Shown here one piece after another: positions 9,720-63,502 of a stretch of DNA of 64,000 nt. Under the pieces are notes generated by a model that searched no databases, was not told the DNA's origin, and saw only the letters and a list, made by a program, of their open reading frames with translations. Within the stretch, counting starts at the first letter, position 1. The number at the start of each line of letters is the position of its first letter. The position numbers and the translations under genes were made by a program. The stretch is from Candidatus Dormiibacterota bacterium (GTDB lineage: Bacteria > Chloroflexota > Dormibacteria > DASZGP01). The stretch covers positions 19,455-83,454 of the forward strand of contig JBARRR010000061.1 of NCBI GenBank assembly GCA_049644325.1, given 5' to 3'.

Positions 9720-9733
9720 TAGGCTGATCGCGA

Positions 9734-11596: not shown

Positions 11597-12856
11597 ATGA
11601 AGCTCGGAATCGACGTCGTGCCCGTTGAGCGTATCCGCGCCGCAATCGACCGGTTCGGCGAGCGCTTCCTTAAACGGATCTACACGCCCGCGGAGCTGGC
11701 CTACACCCAGGGCGACGCCGAGAAGCTGGCGGGGCGATGGGCGGCCAAGGAGGCGGTGCTGAAGGCGCTGGGCGGTCGTGGGCGTTTCCCGCGGATGTCG
11801 CTGGTCGAGGTTCTGCCCGGGCGGCGGGGCGCCCCCGAGGTCCGCCTGACGCGCGAGCCCACTCCTGACATCGCGGTCAGCATCACCCACGACGGCGGTG
11901 TGGCGATGGCGATCGCGGCCATCACCGAGCCCGAGGTCGACGTCATCGGCTCTGCCGAGCTGCCGGACGACCTGCAGCTGCCGGACCGTCCGGAGGACGC
12001 CCACAAGGGCACCTTTGGCGAGGTCGTGGTCGTCGCCGGGTCACTCGGGTACACGGGGGCGGCCTACCTGACCGCCAACGCCGCGGCTCGCGCCGGCGCC
12101 GGCTACGTGCGGCTGCTGGCGGCGGAGTCGATCTACCCGATCCTCGCCATCAAGTGCACCGAGGTCGTGGTGACGCAGGTGCCCGAGGTCGGCCAGGGCG
12201 TGCTTGGGCACGCCGGGATGGAGCCGATCCTGCGCTTCTGCCGCGGCGGTGACGCCTGCATCATCGGACCCGGGCTCGGGCGCGAGTACTCGACCCGGCG
12301 CATGGTGCTCGACCTCCTATCCCAGATCAGCACCCCGGCGGTTGTCGATGCCGACGCCCTCAACGCCCTGGCCAGCCAGCCCAAGCAGATCGGCCGAATG
12401 CGCCGACGGCTGGTGCTGACCCCGCATCCGACAGAGATGGCGCGTCTCACCGGCTTGACCGTGGAGGCGATCCAGGCGGACCGCATCGGGGTGGCAGGAC
12501 GGTTCGCCAAGGAGTGGGGCCAGGTGGTGGTGCTCAAGGGCGCGGGCACGGTGATCGCCGACCCCGATGGTCGGATCCACGTCAATTCCCATAAGAACCC
12601 GGCGCTGGCAACCGCCGGCACCGGTGATGTCCTCGCCGGCATCATCGGCGGTTTCCTGGCCCAGGGGCTGGAGCCCTTCCCGGCGGCGGTTGCGGGGGTC
12701 TACGTCCACGGCGCAGCCGGCGAGGAGATCGCCGCCAAGATGGGGGACACCGGGGCGCTGGCCTCCGACCTCCTGCCCCTGATCCCGGGGGTCATCCGCC
12801 GCAGCCGGCTGGTGCAGCAGTGGCGTGCCCAGCTGGCGGCGATGCGGAAGCAGTGA
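11597..12856 (+). CDS. acpS: fusion protein: holo-ACP synthase (AcpS) N-domain + NAD(P)H-hydrate dehydratase (YjeF_C/Nnr) C-domain
   Basis: N-terminal ~120 aa MKLGIDVVPVERI...AAKEAVLKALG is AcpS-like. The rest (GTFGEVVVVAGSLGYTGAAYL..., GDVLAGIIGGFLAQG) is the YjeF C-terminal carbohydrate-kinase-like domain. Single uninterrupted ORF. Confidence 0.8.
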   Translation: MKLGIDVVPVERIRAAIDRFGERFLKRIYTPAELAYTQGDAEKLAGRWAAKEAVLKALGGRGRFPRMSLVEVLPGRRGAPEVRLTREPTPDIAVSITHDGGVAMAIAAITEPEVDVIGSAELPDDLQLPDRPEDAHKGTFGEVVVVAGSLGYTGAAYLTANAAARAGAGYVRLLAAESIYPILAIKCTEVVVTQVPEVGQGVLGHAGMEPILRFCRGGDACIIGPGLGREYSTRRMVLDLLSQISTPAVVDADALNALASQPKQIGRMRRRLVLTPHPTEMARLTGLTVEAIQADRIGVAGRFAKEWGQVVVLKGAGTVIADPDGRIHVNSHKNPALATAGTGDVLAGIIGGFLAQGLEPFPAAVAGVYVHGAAGEEIAAKMGDTGALASDLLPLIPGVIRRSRLVQQWRAQLAAMRKQ

Positions 12857-14004
12857 GCGGCGCCCAGGGACAAGCGTCGGCGCGCTGGGCTGAGGTCGAC
12901 CTCGACGCCATCGGCCACAACGTCCGCCAGCTGAAGGCGGCTCTCGACAGCGGCGTCCTGCTGGCGGCGGTGGTCAAGGCCGACGGCTACGGCCACGGCG
13001 CCGTCCCGGTTGCGGGCGCCGCGCTGGCCGCCGGCGCCGAGTGGCTGGCGGTGGCCACGGTGCCGGAGGCACTCGAGCTGCGCGCCGCCGGCATCACCGC
13101 CCCGGTCCTCAACCTGGGCGCCACCCTGGAGGCCGAGGCCGACGCTGCTGTCGCCGCTGACCTCCGCTGCAGCGTCTGGGAGCCGGCAGCCATCGATATC
13201 CTGGAGCGCGCCGCCGCCGCGGCCGGGCGCCCGGCAAAGGTTCACTTCCAGCTCGACACCGGGATGGTGCGGCTGGGCGCCGACCCCAATGTGGCCGTCG
13301 AGCTGGGGCTTCGCATCCAGGCCTCGCCCGACCTCGAGCTCGAGGGTCTTTTCACGCACATGGCGGAGGCCGAGGAGCCCACCGACCGCAGCGCCAAGCA
13401 GCTCTCGGTGTTCCTGGCGGCGGTGACGCGGCTGGCCTACGAGGGTGTCTCGGTGCCAATCCTGCACGCGGCCAACTCGGCCGCAGCGCTCAGCTACCCC
13501 GATGCCCGCCTGGGAATGGTCCGCTGCGGGCTCCCCGTATATGGCTACTCACCCCTGGCCGGGCCGTCCGGGCTGGAGCTGCGCCCGGCACTTAGCTGGA
13601 AGGCGCGGGTGCTGCAGACATACGACCTCCGCACGGGTGACCGGATCGGCTACGGCGGGACCTTCGAGGCGTCGGCGCCGGCCCGGAGCGCCACCGTCAG
13701 CGTCGGCTACGCCGACGGTTACCCGCGCAGCCTTTCCAACCGCGGCGAGCTGTTGGTGCGGGGCCGGCGGGCCCCGGTTGTGGGCCGGGTGAGCATGGAC
13801 TTCCTCAGCGTCGACGTCAGTGACATCGACGGCGTCGAGGTCGGCGATGAGGTCGTGGTCATCGGGCGCCAGGGCGATGAGGTGATCACCGCCGCCGACG
13901 TCGCCAATACACTTGGCACGATTCCGTACGAGGTCCTCACCAACATCGGGCGCCGGGTGGTGCGACAGCAGGTCCCCCAGGGCGCGCCTCTGGCCCGTGG
14001 CTGA
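12853..14004 (+). CDS. alr: alanine racemase
   Basis: VVKADGYGHG PLP-lysine motif. GTG start overlaps the upstream stop as GTGA. Confidence 0.85.
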   Translation: MSGAQGQASARWAEVDLDAIGHNVRQLKAALDSGVLLAAVVKADGYGHGAVPVAGAALAAGAEWLAVATVPEALELRAAGITAPVLNLGATLEAEADAAVAADLRCSVWEPAAIDILERAAAAAGRPAKVHFQLDTGMVRLGADPNVAVELGLRIQASPDLELEGLFTHMAEAEEPTDRSAKQLSVFLAAVTRLAYEGVSVPILHAANSAAALSYPDARLGMVRCGLPVYGYSPLAGPSGLELRPALSWKARVLQTYDLRTGDRIGYGGTFEASAPARSATVSVGYADGYPRSLSNRGELLVRGRRAPVVGRVSMDFLSVDVSDIDGVEVGDEVVVIGRQGDEVITAADVANTLGTIPYEVLTNIGRRVVRQQVPQGAPLARG

Positions 14005-48835: not shown

Positions 48836-49345
48836 ATGGCTTACGACGATCTCAGCCCACGGGCTCGCACCGTCGACAACGTCATCCCCGGTGGCGCTGC
48901 TCCCTCGGTAATCGGCCAGGCGCGCAGCTTTGTGGCCATTGGCGTGCTCAGCACCCTGGCCTACTTCGCCCTGTTCGGGCTCCTGCGCGCCCCGCTGACC
49001 CCGGGGGTCGCCAACGGGGTGGCCCTCGCCCTGACGACCGTGGGCAATACCGCCGCCAACCGTCGCTTCACCTTCGCCGTCCGGGGCCGTGGCAGCCAGC
49101 TCCAGGACCACTCGGCGGGGATCCTGGCCTTCGCCGTCGCCCTTGGCATTACCACTGGCGCCCTGGCTCTCCTCACCGTGACCGACCCCTCGGCGCCGGC
49201 GCTGGTCGGCGCCGTGGTGCTGGTTGCCGCCAACCTCCTGGCGACCGCGGCCCGCTTCGCTGTGCTTCGCGCCGCCATCACGCGGAGGGCCGAGAATCGC
49301 CGGCGCCCGGAGGATGGCGGCCGGCTCTCCGAGGTGGCCTCGTGA
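48836..49345 (+). CDS. GtrA-family membrane protein
   Basis: Four TM helices; GtrA signature TVGNTAANRRFTF. Confidence 0.65.
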   Translation: MAYDDLSPRARTVDNVIPGGAAPSVIGQARSFVAIGVLSTLAYFALFGLLRAPLTPGVANGVALALTTVGNTAANRRFTFAVRGRGSQLQDHSAGILAFAVALGITTGALALLTVTDPSAPALVGAVVLVAANLLATAARFAVLRAAITRRAENRRRPEDGGRLSEVAS

Positions 49346-50190
49346 CCAGGGTTTCCCGCGTCGTCGTCCTCGTGTTGGCGGTGGTCGCCGGTGTTGCCCT
49401 GGGCACGTCGGCCGACGTCTTCTATTCCGCCATCCGGCAAGGCCCGATCGCCATCTCAACCGGCGCGGCGCCGGCGGGCAAGCGCGGGTCTGGCCAGGCG
49501 GCCGTTCCCGGGCAGCTCGACGCCGCCACGGTTGCGGCCCAGGTCAACCCGGCCGTGGTCGACATTTACACGACCCTGGCTGGGGGTAGCGCCGCCGGCA
49601 CCGGCATGGTGATCAGCTCGTCCGGCGAGGTCCTGACCAATAACCACGTTGTTGAGGGCGCCACCACGATCTCGGTTCAGGTCGTGGGCACCGGCCGGAC
49701 GTACAGCGCTGCCGTTGTCGGCACCGATAAGGCCGATGACGTCGCCGTGATCCAGCTGCGCGGCGCCGCCAGCCTCAAGACCATCACGGTCGGCGACTCC
49801 TCCAAGGTCTCCGTGGGCGATGCGGTTTTGGCGATTGGCAATGCCCTGGGCCGGGGTGGTGTGCCGCTGGCCAGCCCGGGCGTTGTCGCTGGTCTGAACC
49901 AGACCATCACCGCCGACGATGGCAGCGGCAACGCCGAGACGCTAAGCAGCTTGATCCAGGTGCGGGCCCTGATCCAGCCCGGCGACTCGGGCGGTCCCCT
50001 TGTGGATGCCGGCGGCAATGTGATCGGGATGGACACGGCCGCGCAAATCGGTCGTGGCAGGCGGCAGAGCACTGCCAGCAACAACGGCTACGCCATTCCC
50101 ATCAGCACCGCCATGGCCATCGCCAGGCAGATCGAGGCCGGCGGCACCATCACCGCGGGCGCGCCGGTGACCTCGATGGCGGCGGCATGA
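49342..50190 (+). CDS. trypsin-like S1 serine protease (no PDZ domain)
   Basis: Catalytic triad context TNNHVV, ...D..., GDSGGPL; N-terminal TM/signal. Confidence 0.7.
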   Translation: MTRVSRVVVLVLAVVAGVALGTSADVFYSAIRQGPIAISTGAAPAGKRGSGQAAVPGQLDAATVAAQVNPAVVDIYTTLAGGSAAGTGMVISSSGEVLTNNHVVEGATTISVQVVGTGRTYSAAVVGTDKADDVAVIQLRGAASLKTITVGDSSKVSVGDAVLAIGNALGRGGVPLASPGVVAGLNQTITADDGSGNAETLSSLIQVRALIQPGDSGGPLVDAGGNVIGMDTAAQIGRGRRQSTASNNGYAIPISTAMAIARQIEAGGTITAGAPVTSMAAA

Positions 50191-52289
50191 GCGCTCCACG
50201 CGAAGGGTCAGGCGCACCGCTGGCGTCGGTGGCCCAGCTGGAGCGGGGTGCCGGCATTGGCGCCGCACCCGCCTGGGTGCGGCTCCCACGGCTGGAGACG
50301 CTGTGGCGGGGGCGGGCCGAGGATGCGCCGTGGGTCAGGCCCGGCCTACTGGGCCTGCTGGGCGCGACCGCGCTGCTCTATCTCTGGAACCTTGGTGCCT
50401 CGGGCTGGGCTAACGGCTTCTACTCGGCCGCGGTCCAGGCCGGCAGCACCAGCTGGTCCGCCTTTTTCTTCGGGTCCTTCGACGCCTCCAACTTCATAAC
50501 CGTGGACAAGGCGCCGGGGGCGCTCTGGCTGATCGACCTGTCGGTTCGCGTCTTCGGCCTCAGCACTTGGAGCATCCTCGTGCCGGAGGCGCTGGCGGGC
50601 GTCGGCACGGTCGCCCTGGTGTACGCCACCGTGCGGCGCTGGTCCGCGCCGGCGGCCGGGCTGCTGGCGGGCGCGGTGGTCGCCCTCACGCCGGTGGGGG
50701 CGCTGATGTTCCGCTTCAACAACCCTGACGCGCTCCTGGTCCTGGTGCTCACCGCCGCCGCCTACTCCACGGTGCGTGCCCTGGAGGCTGGCAAGACCGG
50801 CTGGCTGGTGCTGGCAGCGACCCTGGTCGGCTACGGCTTCCTGGTCAAGATGCTGCAGGCATACCTGGTGATGCCTGCGATCGTCCTGGTTTTCCTCGTG
50901 GCCGCGCCGATCTCGCTACGACGACGCCTCGCAAGCCTGGTCGCGGCCGGCCTGGCGCTGCTGGTGTCCTCTGGTTGGTGGGTGGCGATCGTCGAGCTGA
51001 TACCTGCCGCCAACCGCCCTTACATCGGTGGCTCGCAGGACAACACCGTGCTCAACCTGGTGTTCGGCTACAACGGCATAGGTCGCCTCACCGGCAACGA
51101 GACGGGCAGCGTCGGCGGCAACGGTCCGGTCGGGTCGATGTGGGGCCCAACCGGCTGGGACCGGCTCTTCCTGCCCAACTTCGGCGGCGACATCTCCTGG
51201 CTGATCCCGGCCGCAGTGGTGCTGCTGGTCGCAGGGCTGTGGCTGACCCGGCGGGCGCCGCGCACTGATCGCACCCGGGCGGCGCTGCTGCTGTGGGGCG
51301 GATGGCTGCTGGTAACCGGCCTGGTCTTCAGCTTTGCCAGCGGAATCATCCACCCCTACTACACGGTTGCGCTGGCGCCCCCCATCGGCGCCATCATCGG
51401 CATCGGCGCAACCATGCTTTGGAGCCGGCGTTCGCGGCTGCCGTGGCGGCTGCTCCTGGCCGCCTTGGTGGCGGGAACGGTGGTGTGGTCGTTCACGCTG
51501 CTCTCCCGCAGCCCCAACTGGTACCCGATGCTGCGCGTAGCCGTCCTGCTCGCCGGCCTCGCCGCCGCCGCCGGGTTGGCCCTGGTGGCACATCTGCCAG
51601 GCCGGGTTAGCGCCGCCGTGGCGGTGGTCGCCTTGTGCGCCGCGCTGGCCGGCCCCGCCGCCTACACGCTCGAGACAGTGCTCGTGGCTCACGGTGGCGC
51701 CATCCCGTCTGCGGGTCCAGCGGTTGCTGGTGGCCAGGGGGGTCCCGGTGGCCGACCGGGCGGACCGCCACCGGGCGCGGTCAATAGCCAGGTCCCCGGC
51801 GGACCTCCACCCGGCGTTGGAGCCTTTGCGGTAGGCGGTCCTCGCGGCGGACTCGCGCCTGGCATTTCGGCGAACCAGGGTGGCGGCCCCGGAGGCAGCT
51901 CGGCCGGCAGCCTGCTGGACAGCAGCAAGCCGGGCAGCGCAGTTGTCAGCCTGCTGAGCGCCGACTCCGGCAGCTACAAGTGGATCGCGGCTGTGGTCGG
52001 CGCCAACTCAGCGGCGGGCTACCAGTTGGCGACCAATGACCCCGTGATGGCGATTGGCGGCTTCAACGGCACCGACCCGACGCCGTCGCTGGCGGCGTTC
52101 CAGGCGGCCGTTAACGCGCACCAGGTTCACTACTTCATCGCCGGCGGCCGTGGCGGACCAGGTGGGGGACCGCAGGGCGGGCAGTCGTCGCAGTCCTCGG
52201 CCATCACCAGCTGGGTGGAGAGCCACTACAGTCCGACCACCGTCGATGGCGTGACGCTCTATGACTTGACGGCGAACCCCAGCGGTTGA
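50187..52289 (+). CDS. GT-C glycosyltransferase (family 39 / PMT_2-like mannosyltransferase) with Gly/Pro-rich C-terminal region
   Basis: Polytopic N-terminal half with DE-containing first loop; 700 aa. Confidence 0.7.
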   Translation: MSAPREGSGAPLASVAQLERGAGIGAAPAWVRLPRLETLWRGRAEDAPWVRPGLLGLLGATALLYLWNLGASGWANGFYSAAVQAGSTSWSAFFFGSFDASNFITVDKAPGALWLIDLSVRVFGLSTWSILVPEALAGVGTVALVYATVRRWSAPAAGLLAGAVVALTPVGALMFRFNNPDALLVLVLTAAAYSTVRALEAGKTGWLVLAATLVGYGFLVKMLQAYLVMPAIVLVFLVAAPISLRRRLASLVAAGLALLVSSGWWVAIVELIPAANRPYIGGSQDNTVLNLVFGYNGIGRLTGNETGSVGGNGPVGSMWGPTGWDRLFLPNFGGDISWLIPAAVVLLVAGLWLTRRAPRTDRTRAALLLWGGWLLVTGLVFSFASGIIHPYYTVALAPPIGAIIGIGATMLWSRRSRLPWRLLLAALVAGTVVWSFTLLSRSPNWYPMLRVAVLLAGLAAAAGLALVAHLPGRVSAAVAVVALCAALAGPAAYTLETVLVAHGGAIPSAGPAVAGGQGGPGGRPGGPPPGAVNSQVPGGPPPGVGAFAVGGPRGGLAPGISANQGGGPGGSSAGSLLDSSKPGSAVVSLLSADSGSYKWIAAVVGANSAAGYQLATNDPVMAIGGFNGTDPTPSLAAFQAAVNAHQVHYFIAGGRGGPGGGPQGGQSSQSSAITSWVESHYSPTTVDGVTLYDLTANPSG

Positions 52290-54170: not shown

Positions 54171-56210
54171 TCAGCTCAAGTTGGGCTTGGCCGGGGGTGC
54201 CTGTCGTCGCCGGCGCGGGCGTCGGGCCACGCCCGCGGCTGCCGCGGCCGCTCCGCCCAGCGCCGCCGCCGCGAACCCCGCATTTCCGCCGGGTGAGGTG
54301 TTGGGGAGAGACCCCACAGCCGTGCTGCCGGGTTCCCGGCTAAGCAAGTTCGCGCCATTCTCGACGATGCAGCTGGCGACCCAGTGGGCCAGGGCTTCGA
54401 TGGTGTGGGTGGGGTTGTAGCCTCCGGCCGTGGGGAACAGTGACCCGTCGGCGACGAAGAGGTTGGGTATCTCCCAGAACTGGCCGCAGCGGTTGACGAC
54501 CGAGGTCGTGGGGTCGGTGCCCATGCGCATGGTGCCGTGCTGGTGGACGACGTAGCGAGGGCCGACGGCATAGCTGGTCAGCGGCGTGGTGGTGGTCAGC
54601 GTCACCCCGCTGGCGCCGATCGCGCTCAGCATCGCATCCCCGATACCCTTCAGCTGGGCTGCGATGTAGGCGCCGACGATGCTGTCGTTGGCATGGTTGA
54701 AGTAGGTGATCCGCGCTACCGGCTGGCCGTACACGTCCTTGACGCTGGGGTCGAGGTCGACCCGGTTGGCCGCCACCGGCAGGTCTTCGCAGACGGTGGC
54801 GATGAAGGCCTCGGTGTTGTAGCCGGAGGCCATCGCCTGGAGCAGGGTGCTGCCGACGGGCAGCGGCAGGTTGAACGGCAGCGGGAGTTTGGCGGGGACG
54901 GTCGCCGAGCCCCAGATCCCGACTGGGGAGAAGTTGTTGCCCCCGCCCTGGTTGAAGCCGGGCGGCTTCATCAGCGCGGTTGCGAACGAGATGGGACCAC
55001 CGGAGCCGAAGGGGTAGCCGGGCGAGTTGCCGCTGGTGCTGATCACCCCCGCCCGGGGGAATATGGGATTGCCAGGGACGTTCAGGGCGCTGAGGTCCTG
55101 GAAGTCGTCGATGCTGATGGTGTTCCAGGCGCCCCTGTAGGTGTCCCAGCCGTGGGTGCCGTCGGTGATGGCGACCACGGCCGCGGGGTTGTGATGGGTG
55201 GTGAGGTTGCGTCCCACCATGTCGCTCAGGTTGTTGCCCAGACCGTTGGGATGCTGGGGGTTGGCGCTGAGGAGCGCCAGGCGGGGGGTGTCGATGGTGG
55301 AGCAGGCCAGGACGATGACCTGGGCCGCCTGCTCCTGGATGTTGAAGTCCTTGTCGAGATAGATGACCGATTTGGCCCGGCCGTCGGGTCGGGTCAGGAC
55401 CTGCAGGGCGCAGCACTCGGGCCGGATCTCGAGGTTGCCCGTCGCCAGGGCGCGCCGCAGCACCGTGACCGAGGTGGACGCCTTGGCCCCGTTGGGGCAG
55501 CCCCAGCCGTTGCAGAAGCCGCAGTTGACACAGGCGTGGCGACCCTGGAAGCCCTCGACGGTGTTGATGGCGCAGGGGGTGGGGTAGGGGTGGTAATTGA
55601 GGCTGCCGGCGGTGCCCTGGCGGAAGGCGATGGCCTCGTAGCGCTGCGCAACCGGGGGCAGCGGGTAGGGCTTGGAGTAGTGCAGCCCGAACTGCCCGGC
55701 CAGGGCGTTGGCAGGGGGCTGTTCGGCCTCGCCGGGGTAACCGTGGGGCGGTGGAAACCCAGGTGCCAGCCCCGCGATGCCGACGGCCTGTTCGACGGCC
55801 GTGTAATGAGGCTCCAGCTCGTCATAGGTCATCGGCCAGTCCGTCAGCGTTGACCCCGGAGGCACGCCGTAGAGAGACTTCAGCCGGAATTGGTCGGGAA
55901 TGAAGCGGAATGACGCGGCGCCATAGTGGAAGGTGCCACCGCCGACGCAGCGGGAGAGAGGGGAGGCGTGGTTGACTTGGGCCGGCTGCAAGGAGTTGGT
56001 TCGGAAGGTGCGCGGCTCGATACGGATGTCCTGGGTGTAGAAGTCGCGGTAGCCGAATTTGACGTCGTCGTTGCTGAAGGCGCTCTCGGTCAGCCAGGGG
56101 CCCTTCTCCAGGACCACGACCTTGAAGCCCGCCTCGGCCAGGACCCACGCGGCGATACCGCCGCCGGCGCCGGACCCGACGATCAGGATTTCAGTTTCGG
56201 GCAGGCTCAT
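54171..56210 (-). CDS. GMC-family FAD oxidoreductase large subunit with C-terminal cell-surface sorting-like signal
   Basis: N-terminal GSGAGGG FAD Rossmann; no signal peptide. C-terminus is ...SLPNTSPGG + 20-aa hydrophobic stretch + RRPRRRRQ. Confidence 0.8.
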   Translation of the reverse strand: MSLPETEILIVGSGAGGGIAAWVLAEAGFKVVVLEKGPWLTESAFSNDDVKFGYRDFYTQDIRIEPRTFRTNSLQPAQVNHASPLSRCVGGGTFHYGAASFRFIPDQFRLKSLYGVPPGSTLTDWPMTYDELEPHYTAVEQAVGIAGLAPGFPPPHGYPGEAEQPPANALAGQFGLHYSKPYPLPPVAQRYEAIAFRQGTAGSLNYHPYPTPCAINTVEGFQGRHACVNCGFCNGWGCPNGAKASTSVTVLRRALATGNLEIRPECCALQVLTRPDGRAKSVIYLDKDFNIQEQAAQVIVLACSTIDTPRLALLSANPQHPNGLGNNLSDMVGRNLTTHHNPAAVVAITDGTHGWDTYRGAWNTISIDDFQDLSALNVPGNPIFPRAGVISTSGNSPGYPFGSGGPISFATALMKPPGFNQGGGNNFSPVGIWGSATVPAKLPLPFNLPLPVGSTLLQAMASGYNTEAFIATVCEDLPVAANRVDLDPSVKDVYGQPVARITYFNHANDSIVGAYIAAQLKGIGDAMLSAIGASGVTLTTTTPLTSYAVGPRYVVHQHGTMRMGTDPTTSVVNRCGQFWEIPNLFVADGSLFPTAGGYNPTHTIEALAHWVASCIVENGANLLSREPGSTAVGSLPNTSPGGNAGFAAAALGGAAAAAAGVARRPRRRRQAPPAKPNLS

Positions 56211-56222
56211 CGCAGCCGCCGC

Positions 56223-57053
56223 CTACTGGGTGACCGTCTTGGTGCGGTCGAACTTTGTGGTCATGTCCTTGGCCGTCCAGCCCTGCCCTGGGCCCGGGCC
56301 GCCGCTGTTGATGTAGGAGGGGCCGGTGAAGTCGATCATGTCCCAGTAGACGTAGCCCTGGTTGCCGCCATAGGCGGGGTCGCCAAAGCAGGCCTGGGCG
56401 AGGTGGTCGAGGAAGGTCAGAAAGAAGGGCTGCCCATCCTCGCCTCTGCCGTTGTAGGCGCTGACCTCGCTGAGCTGCTGGGCCCGCAGGATGGGCTCGC
56501 GCAGCGGCGCTGCAGCAGCGGCGCTGAAGTCTCCACCGGCGGCGGTGTCGAGCGCGGCGACTCCATTTACATAAAGGGCCTGCAGCCGCTCCAACTCCGA
56601 CGGCCAGGCGTAGGGCCGCGTGGCCCGGGGGACGTCGCCATACCACCCGATGCGCTTGACCGTCCACAGGGGCACCTGTCCGGCTGCGGGAAAGACGGTC
56701 GCGCTGACGCCGGGGGGCAGCTTGACGTAGGGCGGCCGCTTCGCCCCGGCGGCATAGATCAGGCTGCCATCGAGCAGGTTCTGGACGAAGTCGACGGCGC
56801 CGGTGTCGCCGGCGCCCTGGACTGTCATCAGCGTCCCCCGCCGAGTCATGACCTGGCCGCCCGGGATGACGGTGTTGGCGGCCGCCACCAGGACGGCGCG
56901 CTGGTGTACCGATAAGACGAACGAAGAGGCCACGAAGGCCCGGACTGCGCGCATCCGGATTGCTGACGGAAGGGCTGCCGCGGTCGCTGTGGCGGCGCAG
57001 AGCGCCAGGAACCGGCGGCGGCTGAGCTGGAGCGGCGACGCTTCGCGGGTCAC
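56223..57053 (-). CDS. gluconate 2-dehydrogenase subunit-3-like Tat-signal small subunit
   Basis: Twin-arginine motif SRRRFLALCAATATAAALPSA after GTG 57053. The long N-extension to 57293 is discounted. Confidence 0.6.
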   Translation of the reverse strand: MTREASPLQLSRRRFLALCAATATAAALPSAIRMRAVRAFVASSFVLSVHQRAVLVAAANTVIPGGQVMTRRGTLMTVQGAGDTGAVDFVQNLLDGSLIYAAGAKRPPYVKLPPGVSATVFPAAGQVPLWTVKRIGWYGDVPRATRPYAWPSELERLQALYVNGVAALDTAAGGDFSAAAAAPLREPILRAQQLSEVSAYNGRGEDGQPFFLTFLDHLAQACFGDPAYGGNQGYVYWDMIDFTGPSYINSGGPGPGQGWTAKDMTTKFDRTKTVTQ

Positions 57054-58195
57054 TCGTCCGGGGCGCGTCGACGCAACGCCAGCAGGGCTGCTATCAACGC
57101 GGTGACTCCGCCCGCCGCCTGGGCCCAGCCCGGCGCCGCGCTGGAGGTGTTGGGGAGGGCCCCACCCGACGCGTCGCCGGCACCGCTTGCGCCAGCGGCC
57201 GCCGGAGCTGGGCTCGCGCTCGCGGTGGCGGCCCCGACCTGGTACGTGGACGAGAAGGCGGTGTGTCCGACTGGCGGGATCTCGCAGGCGCACCCGTACG
57301 AGTAGTCGGTATCGGGGGCCAGGTCGCCGATGCCGCGGTAGCCCACCGAGTACCAGACCGGCAGCCCCGCGGCGCCGCCGAGGTTGAGGTCGAAATAGGC
57401 GCCGTGGACCCAGTGGTAGGGCACCCCGACGCCGTCGCCGGCGAGGTAGGCCGGACCGTTGAAGTAGCGGCCCTCGAAGGGGAAGTGGTGGAAGATCGAG
57501 GCGTCGCCCTCCAGCTCCATGGCGTGCTCATCGAACTGCGCCAGGGCGGGGAGGCAGTCCGACCCCGGGGCGGTGTTGAGGAGGGCGGACTTATCAGCGC
57601 AGAGGTTCTTGACGTTGGGGCTGTGGCCGTTGAAGGGCATCGTCGGGGTGAAGTCGGAGCCGGCGTTGAAGCGCGCCGCCCAGTGTCCGTCGGCCCCGGG
57701 GCTGGTGGCGTTGCCCGCGGGGATGGCGGAGTAGTCGACCAGGACTCGGCGGCATCCAGCGCAGAGGGCGTCGAAGTCCGTGGACAGGTACCGTAGCTGA
57801 CAGTAGTGGCTGCCGGTGAACGGCGAGTTGTCGCCGGGCGGTGGTCCTGGCGCCGGCGATGGTAGGGCGTTGACCTCGGTCGATGCCGGGATGGGAGGCG
57901 GCGGGTGGGCCGCCTCGCCGCCACAGACGCCGACGCCCGCCGGCGGGGGCGCATCCTCGGGGTCGGCGGCGTAGTCACTGATGGGCACTGGCTGCACCAG
58001 CGCCGGCTGGTAGCTCTGCCAGCTGCTGGTGACGTCAACCAGGGGCCCGAGGGCGGCGACGCAGATGGGCAGCGCCACGGTATCGCATGGGTTGTTGGAG
58101 GCGGCGCCGGCCTCGGAGCTGGCCGGCGCGGTGAGCGCGGCCGCCAGCAGGGCAATACCCCCAAGCATGGATCCCCGCCGCAATCCTCGTGTCAT
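57050..58195 (-). CDS. secreted Cys/His-rich protein with C-terminal LPNTS sorting-like signal
   Basis: Signal peptide MTRGLRRGSMLGGIALLAAALTAPASS from ATG 58195 (SD GGAGTGGGAG). C-terminus is ...ALPNTSSAAPG + TM + RRRAPDE. Confidence 0.55.
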   Translation of the reverse strand: MTRGLRRGSMLGGIALLAAALTAPASSEAGAASNNPCDTVALPICVAALGPLVDVTSSWQSYQPALVQPVPISDYAADPEDAPPPAGVGVCGGEAAHPPPPIPASTEVNALPSPAPGPPPGDNSPFTGSHYCQLRYLSTDFDALCAGCRRVLVDYSAIPAGNATSPGADGHWAARFNAGSDFTPTMPFNGHSPNVKNLCADKSALLNTAPGSDCLPALAQFDEHAMELEGDASIFHHFPFEGRYFNGPAYLAGDGVGVPYHWVHGAYFDLNLGGAAGLPVWYSVGYRGIGDLAPDTDYSYGCACEIPPVGHTAFSSTYQVGAATASASPAPAAAGASGAGDASGGALPNTSSAAPGWAQAAGGVTALIAALLALRRRAPDE

Positions 58196-58257
58196 CTCCC
58201 ACTCCACATCGAATGTGGCCCGCGCCCTAGCATACAGGCGCCCGAGACGCCGGCGTC

Positions 58258-59001
58258 TTACGCCTTCTCGACCACCAGGCTGAATCGCGATTTGAACCGC
58301 TGCATGGCCAGCAGTACGGGCGCCCCCAATCCCAGGACCATGGCCGCGTTGCCGGCGGCCCGAAACGTATCCCAGACCAGGGACGTGGTGACGTAGTACC
58401 GGCCGAAGCGGCCCAGGGCTACCAGCGGCGCCAGTCCCGGCGTCCAGCCGATGTCGGGCGCGCTCCGGAAGAAGCTCCAATCCCAGACGTCGAGGATGAC
58501 GCCGTAGGCGTACCCCAGGATGACGCCGACCGCCGCCAGGGACAGGAGCCGCGCCCGCGGCGAGAACCCCGCCGTGGCCCGCCCGGCCACCCCCGCCAGC
58601 ATCCCGGTCCAGCCGACGCCAAACATCTCGTACGGCAGCCAGGGGCCGACTCCGCCGGTGACCAGCGCCGAGGTCAGCAGCGCCAGGGAGCCGGCCAAAA
58701 AGCCGAACGCGGGCCCAAAGACGTACCCCGCGCACAGCACCAGGAAGAAGATCGGGCTGAAGCCGGCCAGCCCGGTGACCAGGGCCAGCCGCAGGGCGGC
58801 ATCGAGGGCGGCGAACACCGCCAGCAGGGCCAGCCGTCGGTTGTCCAGCTCGTGGGTGCCGATGCCGATGAGGAGGATGGCGAGAACCACGCCGAGACCC
58901 AGGGCCAGCGCCGGCGACTCCGGGGGCAGGCCGAGGCCGAGGAAGGGCCAGGCGAAGATGGCGATGCCGGCCAGCGAGATCATCGGCAGTCTCATAGACA
59001 C
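58258..59001 (-). CDS. ECF transporter substrate-specific (S) component
   Basis: Six-TM, 247 aa protein encoded right after the ECF A/T genes. Confidence 0.6.
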   Translation of the reverse strand: MSMRLPMISLAGIAIFAWPFLGLGLPPESPALALGLGVVLAILLIGIGTHELDNRRLALLAVFAALDAALRLALVTGLAGFSPIFFLVLCAGYVFGPAFGFLAGSLALLTSALVTGGVGPWLPYEMFGVGWTGMLAGVAGRATAGFSPRARLLSLAAVGVILGYAYGVILDVWDWSFFRSAPDIGWTPGLAPLVALGRFGRYYVTTSLVWDTFRAAGNAAMVLGLGAPVLLAMQRFKSRFSLVVEKA

Positions 59002-60611
59002 GCCATCACCCCCTCCACGCTGACCGGACCGCCCGGGTAGAGGCGGGCGATGTCGGTCGCGCCCGGTTGCCCTGAGGCCAGGGCTTGCTCAGGTGGTCCG
59101 CCATCGACGGCACGACCGCGGTCAAGGCGGATGACGCGGTCCGCCAGGTCGGCGGCCAGCTCGGAATCGTGGGTCGCCAGGACAACCGAAGACCCCGCGG
59201 TTCGCAGCTGCCGGACGAGGGCAGCCAGGGCTTCCCGGGCGCTGCCGTCCATGCCCCGGGTGGGCTCGTCGAGCAACGCCAGCTTCGGGCTGCCGGCGAG
59301 GATGGCGGCGATGGCGGCGCGCTGGCGTTCACCACCGCTGAGGTCGCGAGGATAGCGGCTGGCAAGGGCGCTGAGGCCGAGCGCGCCCAGGATGGCGTCG
59401 CCCCGGGCCCGGGCTTCAGCCCCACGGAAGCCCGCCCGCAAGAGGGTGAAATCGAGCTCGGCACGGACCGTCGGGTGGTGGAGGAGGGCGGTGGGGTCCT
59501 GGGGCAGGTACGAGACCCGGCCCCGCTCGCCCAGTTCGCGGTCGACCGATCCCGCCGCTGGGGGGTGCAGACCGGCCAGCGCTCGAAGCAGGGTGGTCTT
59601 GCCGCTGCCGTTGTCACCCATCAGGACCACGACCTCACCGGCATGCCCGGCCAGGGACGCGCCTTCAAGCACCACCTGGTCGTCATGCCGGACGGATAGG
59701 TCCTGGACCTCCCATACCACGGTGCCCCCTGCCGTCGGTGTGCGCCTCGGTGCTCGCGCCAGCACGGGAGCTACAGACATTGCCTCCGCGATGGTCAGGG
59801 GTGGCGGTCGCCAGCCCAGCCGGCGTCCCAGCTCGACCACCTGGGGCGGATGGGTCAGCTGTGGTGCCAGTGAGCGGGGCGGCCCGATGGCCCGAACCGC
59901 CCCGGAGTCCATCAGGACCATGTGGTCGGCCGCCGGGAGTAGGCGGCTGAGACGGTGCTCGGTCACCGCCAGGCTGGCGCCCCCTGCAGCCAGCTCGAGG
60001 ACGGCGTTGAGGAAGGCCGCCGCCCCAGATGGGTCGAGCTGGCTGGTGGGCTCGTCCAGGGCCAGGATCGCCGGCCGCATCGCCAGCGCCGATGCCAGCG
60101 CGACCCGCTGTCGCTCGCCGCCGCTCAGGGTTGCGATGGCGCGCCGGCGCAGCTGGGTTATCCCAAGCGCCGCCAGCACCTCATCAACGCGCGCGCCGAT
60201 CTCCGCTCTCGGGAGCCCCAGGTTCTCCGGCCCGAAGGCGACCTCACGCTCAACCGTTCCGTAGACGAACTGGCTCTCCGGGTCCTGGAAGACAAACCCC
60301 ACGTTGCGGGCCAGGTGACGGGTCCGGGCGGTGAGCACGGAACTGCCGCAGACCACGGCGTCGCCCCGTATGCGCCCACCGTGGAAGTGAGGGATGAGCC
60401 CGTTGAGGACCCGCAACAGCGACGACTTGCCGCTGCCGCTGTCGCCGGCGACGATGGTCAGCCCTGGCTCGAGATCGACGTTGATCCCCGCCAGGGCTGG
60501 GACCTGGCCGTCGGCGTAGTGGTAGGTCAGGTCCTGGAAGCTGGCGATTGCCGCGGGCCGCGGCGACGACGCCAGGACCTCGGGAACGGGACGGGGCAGC
60601 GTCTCAGTCAT
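58992..60611 (-). CDS. ecfA: ECF transporter fused tandem ATPase (EcfA-EcfA')
   Basis: Two ABC cassettes (GDSGSGKSS and GDNGSGKTT Walker A; two LSGGERQR signatures). Confidence 0.85.
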   Translation of the reverse strand: MTETLPRPVPEVLASSPRPAAIASFQDLTYHYADGQVPALAGINVDLEPGLTIVAGDSGSGKSSLLRVLNGLIPHFHGGRIRGDAVVCGSSVLTARTRHLARNVGFVFQDPESQFVYGTVEREVAFGPENLGLPRAEIGARVDEVLAALGITQLRRRAIATLSGGERQRVALASALAMRPAILALDEPTSQLDPSGAAAFLNAVLELAAGGASLAVTEHRLSRLLPAADHMVLMDSGAVRAIGPPRSLAPQLTHPPQVVELGRRLGWRPPPLTIAEAMSVAPVLARAPRRTPTAGGTVVWEVQDLSVRHDDQVVLEGASLAGHAGEVVVLMGDNGSGKTTLLRALAGLHPPAAGSVDRELGERGRVSYLPQDPTALLHHPTVRAELDFTLLRAGFRGAEARARGDAILGALGLSALASRYPRDLSGGERQRAAIAAILAGSPKLALLDEPTRGMDGSAREALAALVRQLRTAGSSVVLATHDSELAADLADRVIRLDRGRAVDGGPPEQALASGQPGATDIARLYPGGPVSVEGVMACL

Positions 60612-61431
60612 GGCGTGGCACCAGCATCGGCGTGAGCAGCAGAAGGACGCCGGCCAGGGCCAGCGGGTTGACCAGGGGGACGGTGGGTACGGGGTATGGG
60701 TACCAGTCGGCCACCAGGCCGGTTACCCGGGCGGCGATGAAAACAAGCGTCGCGGCGGCTGCGGTCAGAACCACCATCAGGTCGCCCGTGCGCCACGGCT
60801 CCGGCATCCAGCGGGTGCGGTGGCCGGAGCCGAAGGCGCGCGCCTCCATCGCCTCCGCCAGCTGGATCGAGCTCTCCATCGACGTCAGCACCAGCGGCAC
60901 CAGCACCTCGGCGTACGACCGCGGACCTCGCGGCCGCCAGCCGCGCACGCTCTGGGCATCGCGGATGGCGCCGTAGCTGCGGCCGATACCCGGCACCATG
61001 TTCAGCGCCGCCGCGATGGTTGCGCCGGCGCGCTCCAGGGAGCGGGGCAGGGCGTCGACCACCTGGTGTGGGTCGACAACCAGTGATAGCGGCGCCGCCG
61101 CCAGGGCGGCGGCCGAGAGGCCGATGCCGCTGGCCAGGCCGAAGACCGCCGACTCCAGGGTCACCGGCCCGGCGAGCCCGGGGACCTGGTGGGGGATGAC
61201 GAAGAGCACATGGGCCCCGGCGTGGCTCAGGAGCATGCTCACGCCAACCGCCACGACCGTGGCGAAAAGGAGGATGCGGAGCAGCCCTCCGAGCTGTCGC
61301 CCCGGCCGCTTACGAGCGACCATGAAGTTGATCGCCAGCAGGATCACCAGCGCCCGGTAAACGGGGTGGTTGGCCACCAGGACGATGGTCAACGCCGCCG
61401 CCGACCAGGCCGCCACCGCCCGTGGGTTCAA
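60604..61431 (-). CDS. ecfT: ECF transporter transmembrane (T) component (CbiQ family)
   Basis: Polytopic; coupling-helix motif AMEARAFG. Confidence 0.75.
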   Translation of the reverse strand: MNPRAVAAWSAAALTIVLVANHPVYRALVILLAINFMVARKRPGRQLGGLLRILLFATVVAVGVSMLLSHAGAHVLFVIPHQVPGLAGPVTLESAVFGLASGIGLSAAALAAAPLSLVVDPHQVVDALPRSLERAGATIAAALNMVPGIGRSYGAIRDAQSVRGWRPRGPRSYAEVLVPLVLTSMESSIQLAEAMEARAFGSGHRTRWMPEPWRTGDLMVVLTAAAATLVFIAARVTGLVADWYPYPVPTVPLVNPLALAGVLLLLTPMLVPRHD

Positions 61432-62189
61432 CGCCGGAGCCTCGGCAGCAACAGCTGGATCACCAATAGCGCGACCAGGCCGATCGCCGTGGCGGCCGCC
61501 GCCCCGATCCCGACCAGGTTCGAGGTGTTGGTTGCCAGGGCCGGAAGCGGGCCGGCGCTGGGTGCTGGTGAAGCGCCCCCGCCGAGCGCCACCTCACCGG
61601 GGTTGGGGCTGGTGGAGCTCGGGTCGGGTGAGCTCTCGGGACTGGGCTGGCCCGCGGTCGCCGGTCCCGCAGCTGACCGCGCGCTCGCGCCGGCCCCCGG
61701 GTTCGCTCCGCTCGAGCCTCCTCCAGCGCTGCCACCGCTGTCCGCCGCCGCGCTGGCTGGCGGTGGCGCTGCCGGTGGGCAGTCAGCCGGCGGGGGAGGT
61801 GGGCCGCCGGCCTGGGGGACGAAGGAGAAGCCCTCGGCCTCGTGGTCGTGGAAGGCGATCCCGTCAATCCCCTTGTGGGCGAAAGCCCACGAGCCCCCGC
61901 ACGGCGAGATCCATATCGACCAGTAGCTGGATTGCTTGAGGCAATCCGGGGGGTAGCTGCTGGGCTCGTTGTCGACCTGGCAGACGGTGTCGCCGTAGTT
62001 TGGGTCGGAGGAGAAGCCGTGTTCGATCCCGGACGCGGTCAGCAGCTCCTTGCCGCCGATGGTGTCGCCCGAGAAGCCGACGCACGCCGTGAAGGCCCGG
62101 CCGTCGCCGTGGCGGACCATCACGGTGGCGTGGTGCGCCGCCGACTGGTTGACGCAGGCCGGTGGGGCGGCGGCGGCTGGAGGCGACAT
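61428..62189 (-). CDS. secreted protein with Gly/Pro/Ser linker and C-terminal sorting-like signal (DUF4430-like beta domain suspected)
   Basis: ATGA overlap with ecfT; C-terminus ...LPALATNTSN + TM + PRLRR. N-terminus/start uncertain. Confidence 0.5.
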   Translation of the reverse strand: MSPPAAAAPPACVNQSAAHHATVMVRHGDGRAFTACVGFSGDTIGGKELLTASGIEHGFSSDPNYGDTVCQVDNEPSSYPPDCLKQSSYWSIWISPCGGSWAFAHKGIDGIAFHDHEAEGFSFVPQAGGPPPPPADCPPAAPPPASAAADSGGSAGGGSSGANPGAGASARSAAGPATAGQPSPESSPDPSSTSPNPGEVALGGGASPAPSAGPLPALATNTSNLVGIGAAAATAIGLVALLVIQLLLPRLRR

Positions 62190-62263
62190 CCCTCCATAAA
62201 GGAGGAGCGCGGTGGCGCCCAGGCCGGCGCAGAGGCCGGCCCGGACAACGGCGCGAGGCGGTC

Positions 62264-63502
62264 TCAGCCCTGGCGTCGGGGCACACCCATGGCGAGGGCG
62301 GACGCCAGCACCAGGAGGACTGCGATCGTCAGCGCAACGACCCCTCGCGGGTCAGCCTGCGGGCCCGGGTGGCCGGCGGCCGGCAGCGCTGGCGCCGGTG
62401 AGGCCGCCTCCAGCGCACCAGAAGCGACCGGGCAGCCTGCCGCGGGTACCACCACGCCGGCCGTGGGAGCGTTGATCGGCAGCGCCTTGCCGACCAGCGC
62501 GGGCGGCACCTGGCTGGTGGTGAAGGTGTCCGGCAAGGGGGTGGAGAACCCGCCGCCGGCGTCCTCCATCGAGAGCAGGTTGCCCAGCGGCGAGTTGCCT
62601 GAGACCTGCCAATTCGAGACCGCCTGGCCGGTGGCGGCCAGCGCTGCGAGTACCAGCGCGTCCGAATCCGCGTCGCTGGCGGTGCCGAAGGCCGAAGGCG
62701 CCTGGAACGGGAACCCGCCGTCGGTGTTCTGCTGTGTGTGGAGCCAGGCCAGGGCGGCGGTGTTGCGGCTGTTGTCGCCGGCGGCAGTAAGGGCCTGGAG
62801 GGCCACCGCGGTTGAGTTGGTGTCGCCCTGGGCGGCGTTGCTGACGGCGGCGCTGCTCCAACCCTTGAAGGTGAAGCCGGTGGCCTGGGTGTCGGGCGTC
62901 ACGCCCTGGTTCTCGAGCCCCTTGAGCCAGGTGACCGCCGCCGCCGGGGCCGTGCCCCCGGTTGCCTTGACGGCGAGGATCGCCAGAGCCTGGGCGAAGG
63001 TGCTGCCATCGCCGTAGGAGCCGGTCGCGACGCCGGTGGAATGGTAGAAGCCGGCGGGCGTGGCTGACTGGTCGCTGGTCAGCTTGGTCAGGAGGTCCTG
63101 GCCTCCGAAGCCGTGGTAGTCGAACTTCCCGGCCGGGGTGTTACCAGCCGCCAGGGCGAGGAGCAGCTTGGCGGTCTTGCCCGCGTCGGCCGCGGCGCCA
63201 GGGGCCTGGGCGGCCAGGTAGTCGTAGAGGCCCTGGCCACCGGTCTTATGGACGGTATTGGGGTCAATCCCGATGGCTGCGGCGCCCACGGCAAAGTCCA
63301 TGCTGGCACCGGGATTGCCGAAGCCTCCGGCGCTGCTCATGTCAAGTGAGCCATCCGTCTTCTGGTTGGCGGCCAGGTACTGGACGGCGCGGGTGGCGGG
63401 GTCGCAGGCAGCGCTGGCGACAAGCGGTGGGGTGAGTGCCAGGCCGCCGAGGGCGGTGGTGACGGCCAGTGTCGCGCTGGCCATGCGGAGGGTCGTCTTC
63501 AT
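62264..63502 (-). CDS. secreted alpha/alpha-toroid protein (prenyltransferase/squalene-oxidase repeats) with C-terminal sorting-like signal
   Basis: Signal peptide ...LVASA/AC; repeats with Q-x-x-D-G-[GS]-[FL] (AANQKTDGSL, HTQQNTDGGFPFQ, MEDAGGGFS). C-terminus ...ALPAAGHPG + TM + PRRQG. Confidence 0.65.
   Translation of the reverse strand: MKTTLRMASATLAVTTALGGLALTPPLVASAACDPATRAVQYLAANQKTDGSLDMSSAGGFGNPGASMDFAVGAAAIGIDPNTVHKTGGQGLYDYLAAQAPGAAADAGKTAKLLLALAAGNTPAGKFDYHGFGGQDLLTKLTSDQSATPAGFYHSTGVATGSYGDGSTFAQALAILAVKATGGTAPAAAVTWLKGLENQGVTPDTQATGFTFKGWSSAAVSNAAQGDTNSTAVALQALTAAGDNSRNTAALAWLHTQQNTDGGFPFQAPSAFGTASDADSDALVLAALAATGQAVSNWQVSGNSPLGNLLSMEDAGGGFSTPLPDTFTTSQVPPALVGKALPINAPTAGVVVPAAGCPVASGALEAASPAPALPAAGHPGPQADPRGVVALTIAVLLVLASALAMGVPRRQG

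Follow-up and report, generated by a model that had tools for sequence, protein, structure and literature searches.

The window analysed here is a 64 kb stretch of contig JBARRR010000061.1 from a Candidatus Dormiibacterota bacterium. At positions 54171-63502 it contains eight genes, all on the minus strand, which are packed closely in a single string, neighbouring genes overlapping or almost touching (Table 1). Four of the encoded proteins end in a hydrophobic stretch followed by a basic tail: a GMC-family flavin adenine dinucleotide (FAD) oxidoreductase (the flavoprotein), an uncharacterised secreted protein (the partner protein), a secreted SCO2322-like protein and a SCO2321-like surface protein of prenyltransferase/terpene-cyclase fold (the prenyltransferase-fold protein). 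The first-pass annotation of this DNA had assigned one shared, non-canonical tripartite sorting signal to all four. The coordinates and C-terminal sequences were read as it claimed, and the hydrophobic stretch and basic tail were present on each of the four proteins. The pentapeptide LPNTS, however, is common to two of them only, the flavoprotein and the partner protein; the LPAAG of the prenyltransferase-fold protein is a separate motif, and the LATNTS of the SCO2322-like protein is unconserved. Elsewhere among the likely genes of the window, the layout of hydrophobic stretch and basic tail was found only on small membrane proteins and on the ECF S component.

Table 1. Genes at 54171-63502 of the window and the C-terminal elements of the four tail-bearing proteins.
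Feature	Positions	Strand	Sequence or basis
GMC-family FAD oxidoreductase, large subunit, 679 aa	54171-56210	minus	Pfam GMC_oxred_N and GMC_oxred_C
Flavoprotein C-terminus		minus	...GSLPNTSPGGNAG-FAAAALGGAAAAAAGVA-RRPRRRRQAPPAKPNLS; sequence reading
Flavoprotein LPNTS	54294-54308	minus	Six-frame motif scan
Flavoprotein hydrophobic segment	54225-54275	minus	FAAAALGGAAAAAAGVA; sequence reading
Flavoprotein basic tail	54174-54224	minus	RRPRRRRQAPPAKPNLS; sequence reading
Gluconate_2-dh3 small subunit	56223-57053	minus	Pfam PF13618; GTG start overlaps stop of upstream gene (GTGA)
Uncharacterised secreted partner protein, 381 aa	57050-58195	minus	Pfam: no family
Partner C-terminus		minus	...GGALPNTSSAAPG-WAQAAGGVTALIAALLAL-RRRAPDE; sequence reading
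Partner LPNTS	57143-57157	minus	Followed by spacer SAAPG
Partner hydrophobic stretch	57074-57127	minus	WAQAAGGVTALIAALLAL
Partner basic tail	57053-57073	minus	RRRAPDE
ECF S component	58258-59001	minus	Pfam ECF_trnsprt
Duplicated ECF ATPase	58992-60611	minus	Pfam ABC_tran x2; NCBIfam ECF_ATPase
ECF T component (EcfT)	60604-61431	minus	Pfam CbiQ
SCO2322-like secreted protein	61428-62267 (annotated ATG 62189)	minus	C-terminal membrane anchor
SCO2322-like C-terminus		minus	...LPALATNTSN-LVGIGAAAATAIGLVALLVIQLLL-PRLRR; sequence reading
SCO2322-like helix	61446-61517	minus
SCO2322-like basic tail	61431-61445	minus	PRLRR
SCO2321-like prenyltransferase/terpene-cyclase-fold surface protein, 412 aa	62264-63502	minus	NCBIfam SCO2321_fam 5.8e-18; weak SQHop_cyclase_C
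Prenyltransferase-fold protein C-terminus		minus	...ALPAAGHPGPQADPR-GVVALTIAVLLVLASALAMGVP-RRQG; sequence reading
Prenyltransferase-fold protein LPAAG	62372-62386	minus	Followed by spacer HPGPQADPR
Prenyltransferase-fold protein hydrophobic stretch	62279-62344	minus
Prenyltransferase-fold protein basic tail	62267-62278	minus	RRQG

Translation of the 64 kb in all six frames gave two copies of LPNT[GAS] and no more, where composition predicts 0.17. Both copies were located in real genes, 35 and 45 residues ahead of the stop codon and directly before the hydrophobic run, and for these reasons the pair is not due to chance. A search with the partner protein found 56 relatives, nearly all from soil metagenomes and Dormibacterota metagenome-assembled genomes (MAGs), and two of them carry the JGI label 'LPXTG-motif cell wall-anchored protein'. 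The tails of these relatives contained LPNTS, LPNTA, LPNTG, LPDTA, LPDTG, LPDTS, LPGTG, LPATS, LANTG and similar pentapeptides. L[PA]xT[GAST] was present in 32 of the 47 family members with helix and basic tail, whereas shuffling of the same 33 residues gave an expectation of 1.64. In the alignment of 48 partner sequences the Pro was invariant and the Thr at least 90% conserved within an unconserved linker, and the residue following the Thr was Ser (11), Ala (10), Gly (9) or Thr (2). The excess over shuffling and the two conserved residues inside a drifting linker indicate that LPNTS is a real motif under selection. Our literature search returned no paper with 'LPNTS' as a motif.

The same position was occupied by related pentapeptides in the flavoprotein orthologues of related loci (designated here by L numbers): LPNTS in L001 and L048, LPNTA in L045-L047, LPNTG in L014, LPDTT in L002, LPDTS in L059, LPNTN in L055, TPNTA in L049 and VPNTS in L054. 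The flavoprotein thus ends in xPNT[S/A/G/N] or LPDT[S/T] with helix and Arg in the window and in all of these loci. No tail was present in L003, L005, L050/L051 or L053, nor did any homologue from a diderm phylum have one. In L053 (10001-13607) both the partner protein and the flavoprotein were without the sorting signal, and in L050 and L051 (6827-11140) a partner protein with LPNTA was accompanied by a more divergent, oppositely oriented flavoprotein lacking it. Related contigs carried the same signal on unrelated proteins, namely a GH31 protein, a GH5 cellulase, a TED thioester-domain protein, a DUF6351 protein and an 897-residue protein. The TED protein of L046 (15693-17054) ends in MPNTG, helix and basic tail. 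TED domains are typical of Gram-positive adhesins, which points once more to a wall-anchored surface proteome in the lineage.

Among models of sorting domains, TIGR01167 (LPXTG_anchor; curated cut-off 15.9 bits) gave the best match and was the most frequent in the partner family, where 8 of 48 members matched at E<=1. As isolated tails, the partner protein scored 19.7 bits, the flavoprotein 15.4 bits and an LPNTG neighbour in L007 22.5 bits. The tails of the prenyltransferase-fold and SCO2322-like proteins did not match TIGR01167, and none of the four window tails matched PEP-CTERM, PGF-CTERM, GlyGly-CTERM, MYXO-CTERM or the other exosortase, archaeosortase and rhombosortase models at E<=10. 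A tail of L046 with LPDTA gave sub-threshold matches to IPTL-CTERM and MYXO-CTERM that covered the helix only. We also compared the rate of drift in tails and bodies. In the three candidate substrates (flavoprotein, partner protein and prenyltransferase-fold protein) the helix and tail were 19-44% identical and the bodies 50-83%; the flavoprotein tail showed 41-44% against 74-83% for its body, and the helix of the prenyltransferase-fold protein 19-35% against 50-74%. Such low conservation fits a signal that is discarded, while the conserved helix of the SCO2322-like protein fits a permanent anchor.

The prenyltransferase-fold protein has, by inspection, an N-terminal signal peptide (...LVASA/ACD), and as query in a full-library search it found 861 relatives. 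At the position of its LPAAG the nearest relatives had LPAAG, LPRAG, LPTAG, LPSAG, LPEAG or LPQAG, and remoter relatives LPNTG, LPRTG, LPDTG, LPETG, LPVTG, LAQTG and, once, LPNTS; many two-domain relatives had the helix only. Orthologues in the syntenic cluster retained LPAAG (L001, L045 and L058) or LPRAG (L055), and LPRAG was also found in four representatives. Since syntenic orthologues keep LPAAG or LPRAG and remoter relatives carry LPXTG or LAXTG, the comparison indicates that LPAAG is a conserved LPxAG variant in the LPXTG slot. That it serves as a sortase signal is probable, not certain. No paper pairing 'LPAAG' with a sortase was found in the literature. SasD and SasF of Staphylococcus aureus carry LPAAG and LPKAG, which is given here as background and not used as evidence.

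The SCO2322-like protein differed from the other three. The position of its 'LPALATNTS' was occupied by LPALATSTP in L001 (95%), by PLLATGGSS in a 57% relative (P0329) and by NPGTGPPTPAG in L045. The homologue search gave 3 matches only, its candidate list being swamped by low-complexity words. Identity of helix and PRLRR was 66% where that of the body was 61%, and 59% where that of the body was 39%. Because the motif is unconserved, no sorting model matches and the helix is at least as conserved as the body, the tail is best read as a permanent, conserved membrane anchor and not as a sorting signal. The first-pass annotation had considered that the tails might be simply C-terminal membrane anchors, and for this protein alone that holds. 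The annotated ATG at 62189 leaves the protein without a signal peptide, and the same codon is Leu in L001. Upstream of it and in frame, a conserved stretch resembles a signal peptide, and it is at this place that the 57% relative has one. The sole in-frame candidate start is a CTG at 62267-62265, which overlaps the upstream stop (CTGA, 62267-62264); in L045 a GTG is located one base past the stop. The CTG is probably the true start.

The partner protein carries an N-terminal signal peptide (MTRGLRRGSMLGGIALLAAALTAPASS, by inspection) and a beta-rich domain with invariant Cys and His residues, including His171, His191, Cys199, Cys214, His237 and His261. Its AlphaFold2 model (pLDDT 80, pTM 0.76) consisted of beta-sandwich domains, and comparison with solved structures found nothing nearer than generic beta-sandwiches. 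In L055 the partner gene is broken into two open reading frames (ORFs), and the N-terminal half is missing from the GMC gene call (9690-10854 and 12517-13710), reflecting either an assembly frameshift or a decaying copy. In L007 (7482-9913; the same place as L060, 8700-11131) two convergent ORFs on opposite strands have an overlap of over 1 kb, and an LPNT[A/G] sorting signal stands at the end of each. One encodes a member of the partner family; at the place of the other, a Gluconate_2-dh3 gene is listed for L051, so that this ORF may be partly a high-GC shadow.

The flavoprotein has no export signal on its own polypeptide, as seen from its N-terminus (MSLPETEILIVGSGAGGG) and the sequence upstream: the ATG lies only 4 codons past an in-frame stop and the ORF starts directly in the FAD-binding GSGAGGG fold. 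Likewise, no GMC signal peptide was found in any related locus with a readable 5' end, where the gene opens directly on the FAD-binding fold. A twin-arginine signal (SRRRFLAL, motif at 57006-57023) is located on the adjacent Gluconate_2-dh3 small subunit, and its RR motif was kept in 9 of 9 related loci where the gene was read. The 'Tat-exported FAD oxidoreductase' (Tat, twin-arginine translocation) of the first-pass annotation is to be corrected accordingly, the twin-arginine signal being on the small subunit and not on the oxidoreductase itself. The genes for the partner protein, the small subunit and the flavoprotein are joined by a GTGA overlap and a 12-nt gap. This trio was together in every related locus that was fully read (L045-L051 and L053-L055), with or without ECF genes, so that the three-gene arrangement is conserved in about ten Dormibacterota-type loci, and the partner protein carries the same signal as the flavoprotein.

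Six Arg are found among the first 7 residues past the flavoprotein helix and none before it. Because the Arg cluster directly follows the helix, the positive-inside rule predicts that the body of the enzyme lies outside the cell. Most likely the flavoprotein would take the 'hitchhiker' route, crossing the membrane in folded form and bound to the twin-arginine small subunit; its own tail would come into use after that. Such hitchhiking of the large subunit occurs in the gluconate, sorbitol and fructose dehydrogenases of Gram-negative bacteria. We regard the flavoprotein as a candidate Tat-hitchhiker sortase substrate, since it has no signal peptide of its own and the adjacent small subunit is a twin-arginine protein in every locus read. 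Tat can integrate the C-terminal helices of sortase substrates, and the first natural Tat-dependent sortase substrates have been reported, each with its own twin-arginine signal (PMC10924467). In that 2024 survey of Tat-dependent tail-anchored proteins, signal-less passengers were unsearchable, and none was known beside a Tat substrate (PMC10924467). It is possible, at somewhat less than an even chance, that the flavoprotein is the first natural 'hitchhiker' sortase substrate: it would fold around FAD in the cytoplasm, pass through Tat on the small subunit, release its helix to the membrane and be fixed to the wall by a relaxed sortase.

No sortase was found in the window by a TLxTC regular expression, by phmmer with S. 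aureus SrtA, by a hidden Markov model (HMM) of 120 sortases or by Pfam on the otherwise unannotated window ORFs, in agreement with the first-pass annotation. The same was true beyond the window. The TLxTC expression on all ORFs of the related loci, the 120-sortase HMM on every ORF of 51 and 16 further sources, the Pfam labels of neighbours in 11 look-ups of gene context and a metagenome scan with the partner family (16 loci) all failed to reveal one. A hand-made high-GC sortase consensus, validated against sortases of the PDB at E=4e-25, gave 2553 matches. The literature search found no paper that meaningfully links Dormibacterota with a sortase. Little can be concluded from the lack of a sortase in 64 kb, since the genes for housekeeping sortases commonly lie apart from those of their substrates. 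Absence from the ~0.5 Mb of Dormibacterota-like sequence is uninformative, being expected even if sortases exist: with one to three sortase genes per genome of 3-4 Mb, only ~10-15% of one genome's worth was covered.

We consider it likely that both LPNTS proteins, the GMC flavoprotein and the partner protein, have sortase-type wall-sorting signals; for the prenyltransferase-fold protein this is less certain. The SCO2322-like protein is simply membrane-anchored. Our observations are the motif with its position and conservation, its match to the model of the LPXTG anchor, and a gene arrangement that is conserved. Sortase cleavage, wall attachment and Tat dependence are what we infer for these proteins. 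After export, the C-terminal helix and basic tail would retain the protein in the membrane until a sortase, with its gene elsewhere in the genome, cut it past the fourth residue of the pentapeptide; the cut protein would then be moved onto a peptidoglycan precursor. In Dormibacterota the residue past the cleavage site would be relaxed, LPNT being followed by Ser, Ala or Gly, and a second type, LPxAG, would coexist in the same genomes. The layout of a sortase substrate, proposed for all four proteins at first pass, thus stands for both proteins with LPNTS, arguably also for the one with LPAAG, but fails for the SCO2322-like protein.

A non-canonical motif of some different anchoring system, as first suggested for LPNTS, is not needed. 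The orthologues carry LPXT[G/A/S], TIGR01167 is the best match, and LPXTS, LPXTA and LPXAG are all published variants of sortase motifs, so that LPNTS is most simply read as a relaxed LPXTG. SrtA of Streptococcus pyogenes takes LPXTA and LPXTS readily and has been crystallised together with LPATS (PMC9520033). The motif list for the sortase of Streptococcus uberis includes LPX(A/S)G, LPXAG and LPXTS (PMC2657157), and class D sortases use LPXTA/LPNTA (PMC8225981).

Several results weigh against sortase-type sorting. The flavoprotein tail is 0.5 bit under the TIGR01167 cut-off, and the full-length partner protein reached 14.4 bits, also under 15.9. The linker between the catalytic domain of the flavoprotein (Pfam GMC, ending at residue 608) and LPNTS is ~25 residues, which is short for a wall-spanning stalk. 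LPAAG has Ala where sortases normally need Thr, and it matched no model. No sortase was present in ~0.9 Mb of fetched loci, of which ~0.5 Mb was Dormibacterota-like; among the best 120 of the 2553 consensus matches, every one with an organism name was from Actinomycetota and of class E, and no Dormibacterota sortase was shown.

In one alternative, the tails are permanent, uncleaved membrane anchors and LPxT is kept for another purpose, such as capping the helix, forming a hinge or being recognised by a membrane insertase. The SCO2322-like protein is clearly of this kind, its helix being conserved and its motif not. The short flavoprotein linker and the failure to locate a sortase in the searched sequence agree with it as well, and Tat-dependent tail-anchored redox enzymes are a known class (PMC10924467). 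A hinge, however, gives no reason for Pro to be invariant and Thr, two residues on, nearly so in proteins as unrelated as GH5, GH31, TED, GMC and the partner protein. Moreover, in the three candidates sequence change is much faster in the helix than in the body, as expected of a discarded segment, and the motif and its spacing fit the LPXTG anchor model. We judge permanent anchoring of the three candidates unlikely.

It is still less probable, and we give it little weight, that a lineage-specific enzyme other than a sortase reads LPNT[SAG] and LPxAG and that the phylum has no sortase. The empty searches of Dormibacterota-like sequence, the unusually permissive residue after Thr and the coexistence of a second motif with Ala for Thr would all fit such an enzyme. 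However, the searched fraction of a genome is too small for absence to be informative, the orthologues interchange freely with canonical LPXTG, the window tails match no exosortase, archaeosortase or rhombosortase model, and known sortases already take LPXTS and LPXTA.

The N-T-S of LPNTS also fits the N-x-S/T sequon of N-glycosylation, here beside a membrane anchor, and genes for a PMT_2/YkcB-type (family-39-like) glycosyltransferase (50187-52289) and a GtrA-like protein lie alongside, with synteny to L045. This reading was rejected as highly improbable, since it is contradicted by the orthologues: LPNTA, LPNTG, LPDTA and LPGTG are not sequons, while Leu, Pro and Thr are conserved. Chance resemblance in the Ala/Gly/Pro-rich C-termini of a high-GC genome, though the linkers are indeed of low complexity and the SCO2322-like 'motif' is just such a resemblance, is contradicted for LPNTS and LPxAG by the counts in the window and the family, and its probability is negligible.

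The public contig nearest to the window by GMC oxidoreductase is from a Candidatus Dormiibacterota MAG (L001; 95% amino-acid identity), followed by 'Chloroflexi bacterium CF_xx' soil MAGs and other Dormibacterota. A protein identical to the SCO2322-like protein over 253 aa is encoded in an NCBI Ca. Dormiibacterota MAG (locus tag WBD38_05220), on a contig of 90.6 kb. The 2.7 Mb JGI contig Ga0467060_0000001 (sample 3300060356) also has this cluster. The G+C content of the window is 63-72%. Dormibacteraeota were grouped with Chloroflexi and the candidate phyla radiation in a monoderm clade (bioRxiv 10.1101/2021.05.31.446380). Within the gene string, the ECF transporter genes (58258-61431) sit between the tail-bearing genes, and overlaps were found at 57050-57053 (GTGA), 58992-59001, 60604-60611, 61428-61431 and 62264-62267. 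Because the genes are packed in one minus-strand string, in this lineage the ECF cluster probably shares a transcript with the dehydrogenase cassette. The two are unlinked in L046-L054. The genes adjoining the dehydrogenase genes at 48836-52289 encode a GtrA-like protein, a trypsin-like protease and the PMT_2/YkcB-type glycosyltransferase; L045 has the same neighbours, and these genes may form a surface-glycosylation module.

The tails resemble the LPXTG anchor (TIGR01167) in having a pentapeptide, a short spacer, a hydrophobic stretch of 17-22 residues and an Arg-rich tail within the last 35-50 residues. Their carriers are secreted enzymes and adhesin-like proteins, the lineage is monoderm, and the tails score at or near the model cut-off. 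They differ in showing no preference for Gly past the Thr, Ser, Ala and Gly being about equal, and in the coexistence of a conserved LPxAG class; Dormibacterota, moreover, has no cultured member and no characterised sortase. Among class D substrates, BasH and BasI of Bacillus anthracis carry LPNTA, and Bacillus cellulosilyticus has LPXTA carbohydrases (PMC3617157). LPNTA is likewise among the commonest forms in the relatives of the window proteins and occurs there on glycoside hydrolases such as GH5. Here, however, Gly and Ser swap with Ala, and we do not assign the responsible enzyme to class D.

The actinobacterial Tat-dependent tail-anchored proteins and sortase substrates described by the Palmer laboratory (PMC10924467) share with the flavoprotein a folded cofactor protein, a C-terminal helix, a positive-inside tail, a motif before the helix and a twin-arginine signal in the system. 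The flavoprotein differs in lacking a signal peptide of its own, the twin-arginine signal being carried by the small subunit encoded next to it. In this it resembles the three-subunit FAD dehydrogenases of Gram-negative bacteria (gluconate 2-dehydrogenase type), in which a signal-less GMC large subunit is likewise found beside a PF13618 small subunit with a twin-arginine signal. Those systems have a cytochrome c subunit. The locus described here has none; its third gene encodes the uncharacterised Cys/His-rich beta-sandwich partner protein, and anchoring would be through C-terminal sorting signals on two subunits. That the partner protein takes the place of the cytochrome c subunit is speculation.

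SCO2321 and SCO2322 of Streptomyces lie beside ECF transporter genes in the same order as in the window, namely prenyltransferase-fold protein, small secreted protein, EcfT, EcfA-A and S component. The window proteins nevertheless score far under the NCBIfam cut-offs (65 against 300 bits and 15.1 against 85 bits) and are distant relatives only. The tails in this family depend on the lineage: that of the window has LPxAG, others have LPXTG or LAXTG, and many members end in a plain helix.

The finding is real but mostly ordinary. It comprises LPXTG-type signals with a lineage-typical relaxed fifth position, an LPxAG variant and one plain anchor. Of specialist interest is the conserved sorting signal on a flavoprotein that has no signal peptide and is probably a Tat hitchhiker. 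The three-gene cassette offers concrete candidates for signal-less Tat passengers, the class that the 2024 survey could not search (PMC10924467). Since the LPXTG models are right at their cut-off on these tails, the surface proteomes of Dormibacterota, an abundant and uncultured phylum of soil, would be under-called. The near-equal use of Ser, Ala and Gly past the Thr predicts a sortase with naturally broad specificity in this phylum, with a possible use in protein ligation. It is possible that a monoderm lineage has swapped the cytochrome c anchor of the Gram-negative FAD dehydrogenases for wall or membrane anchoring of the catalytic subunit.

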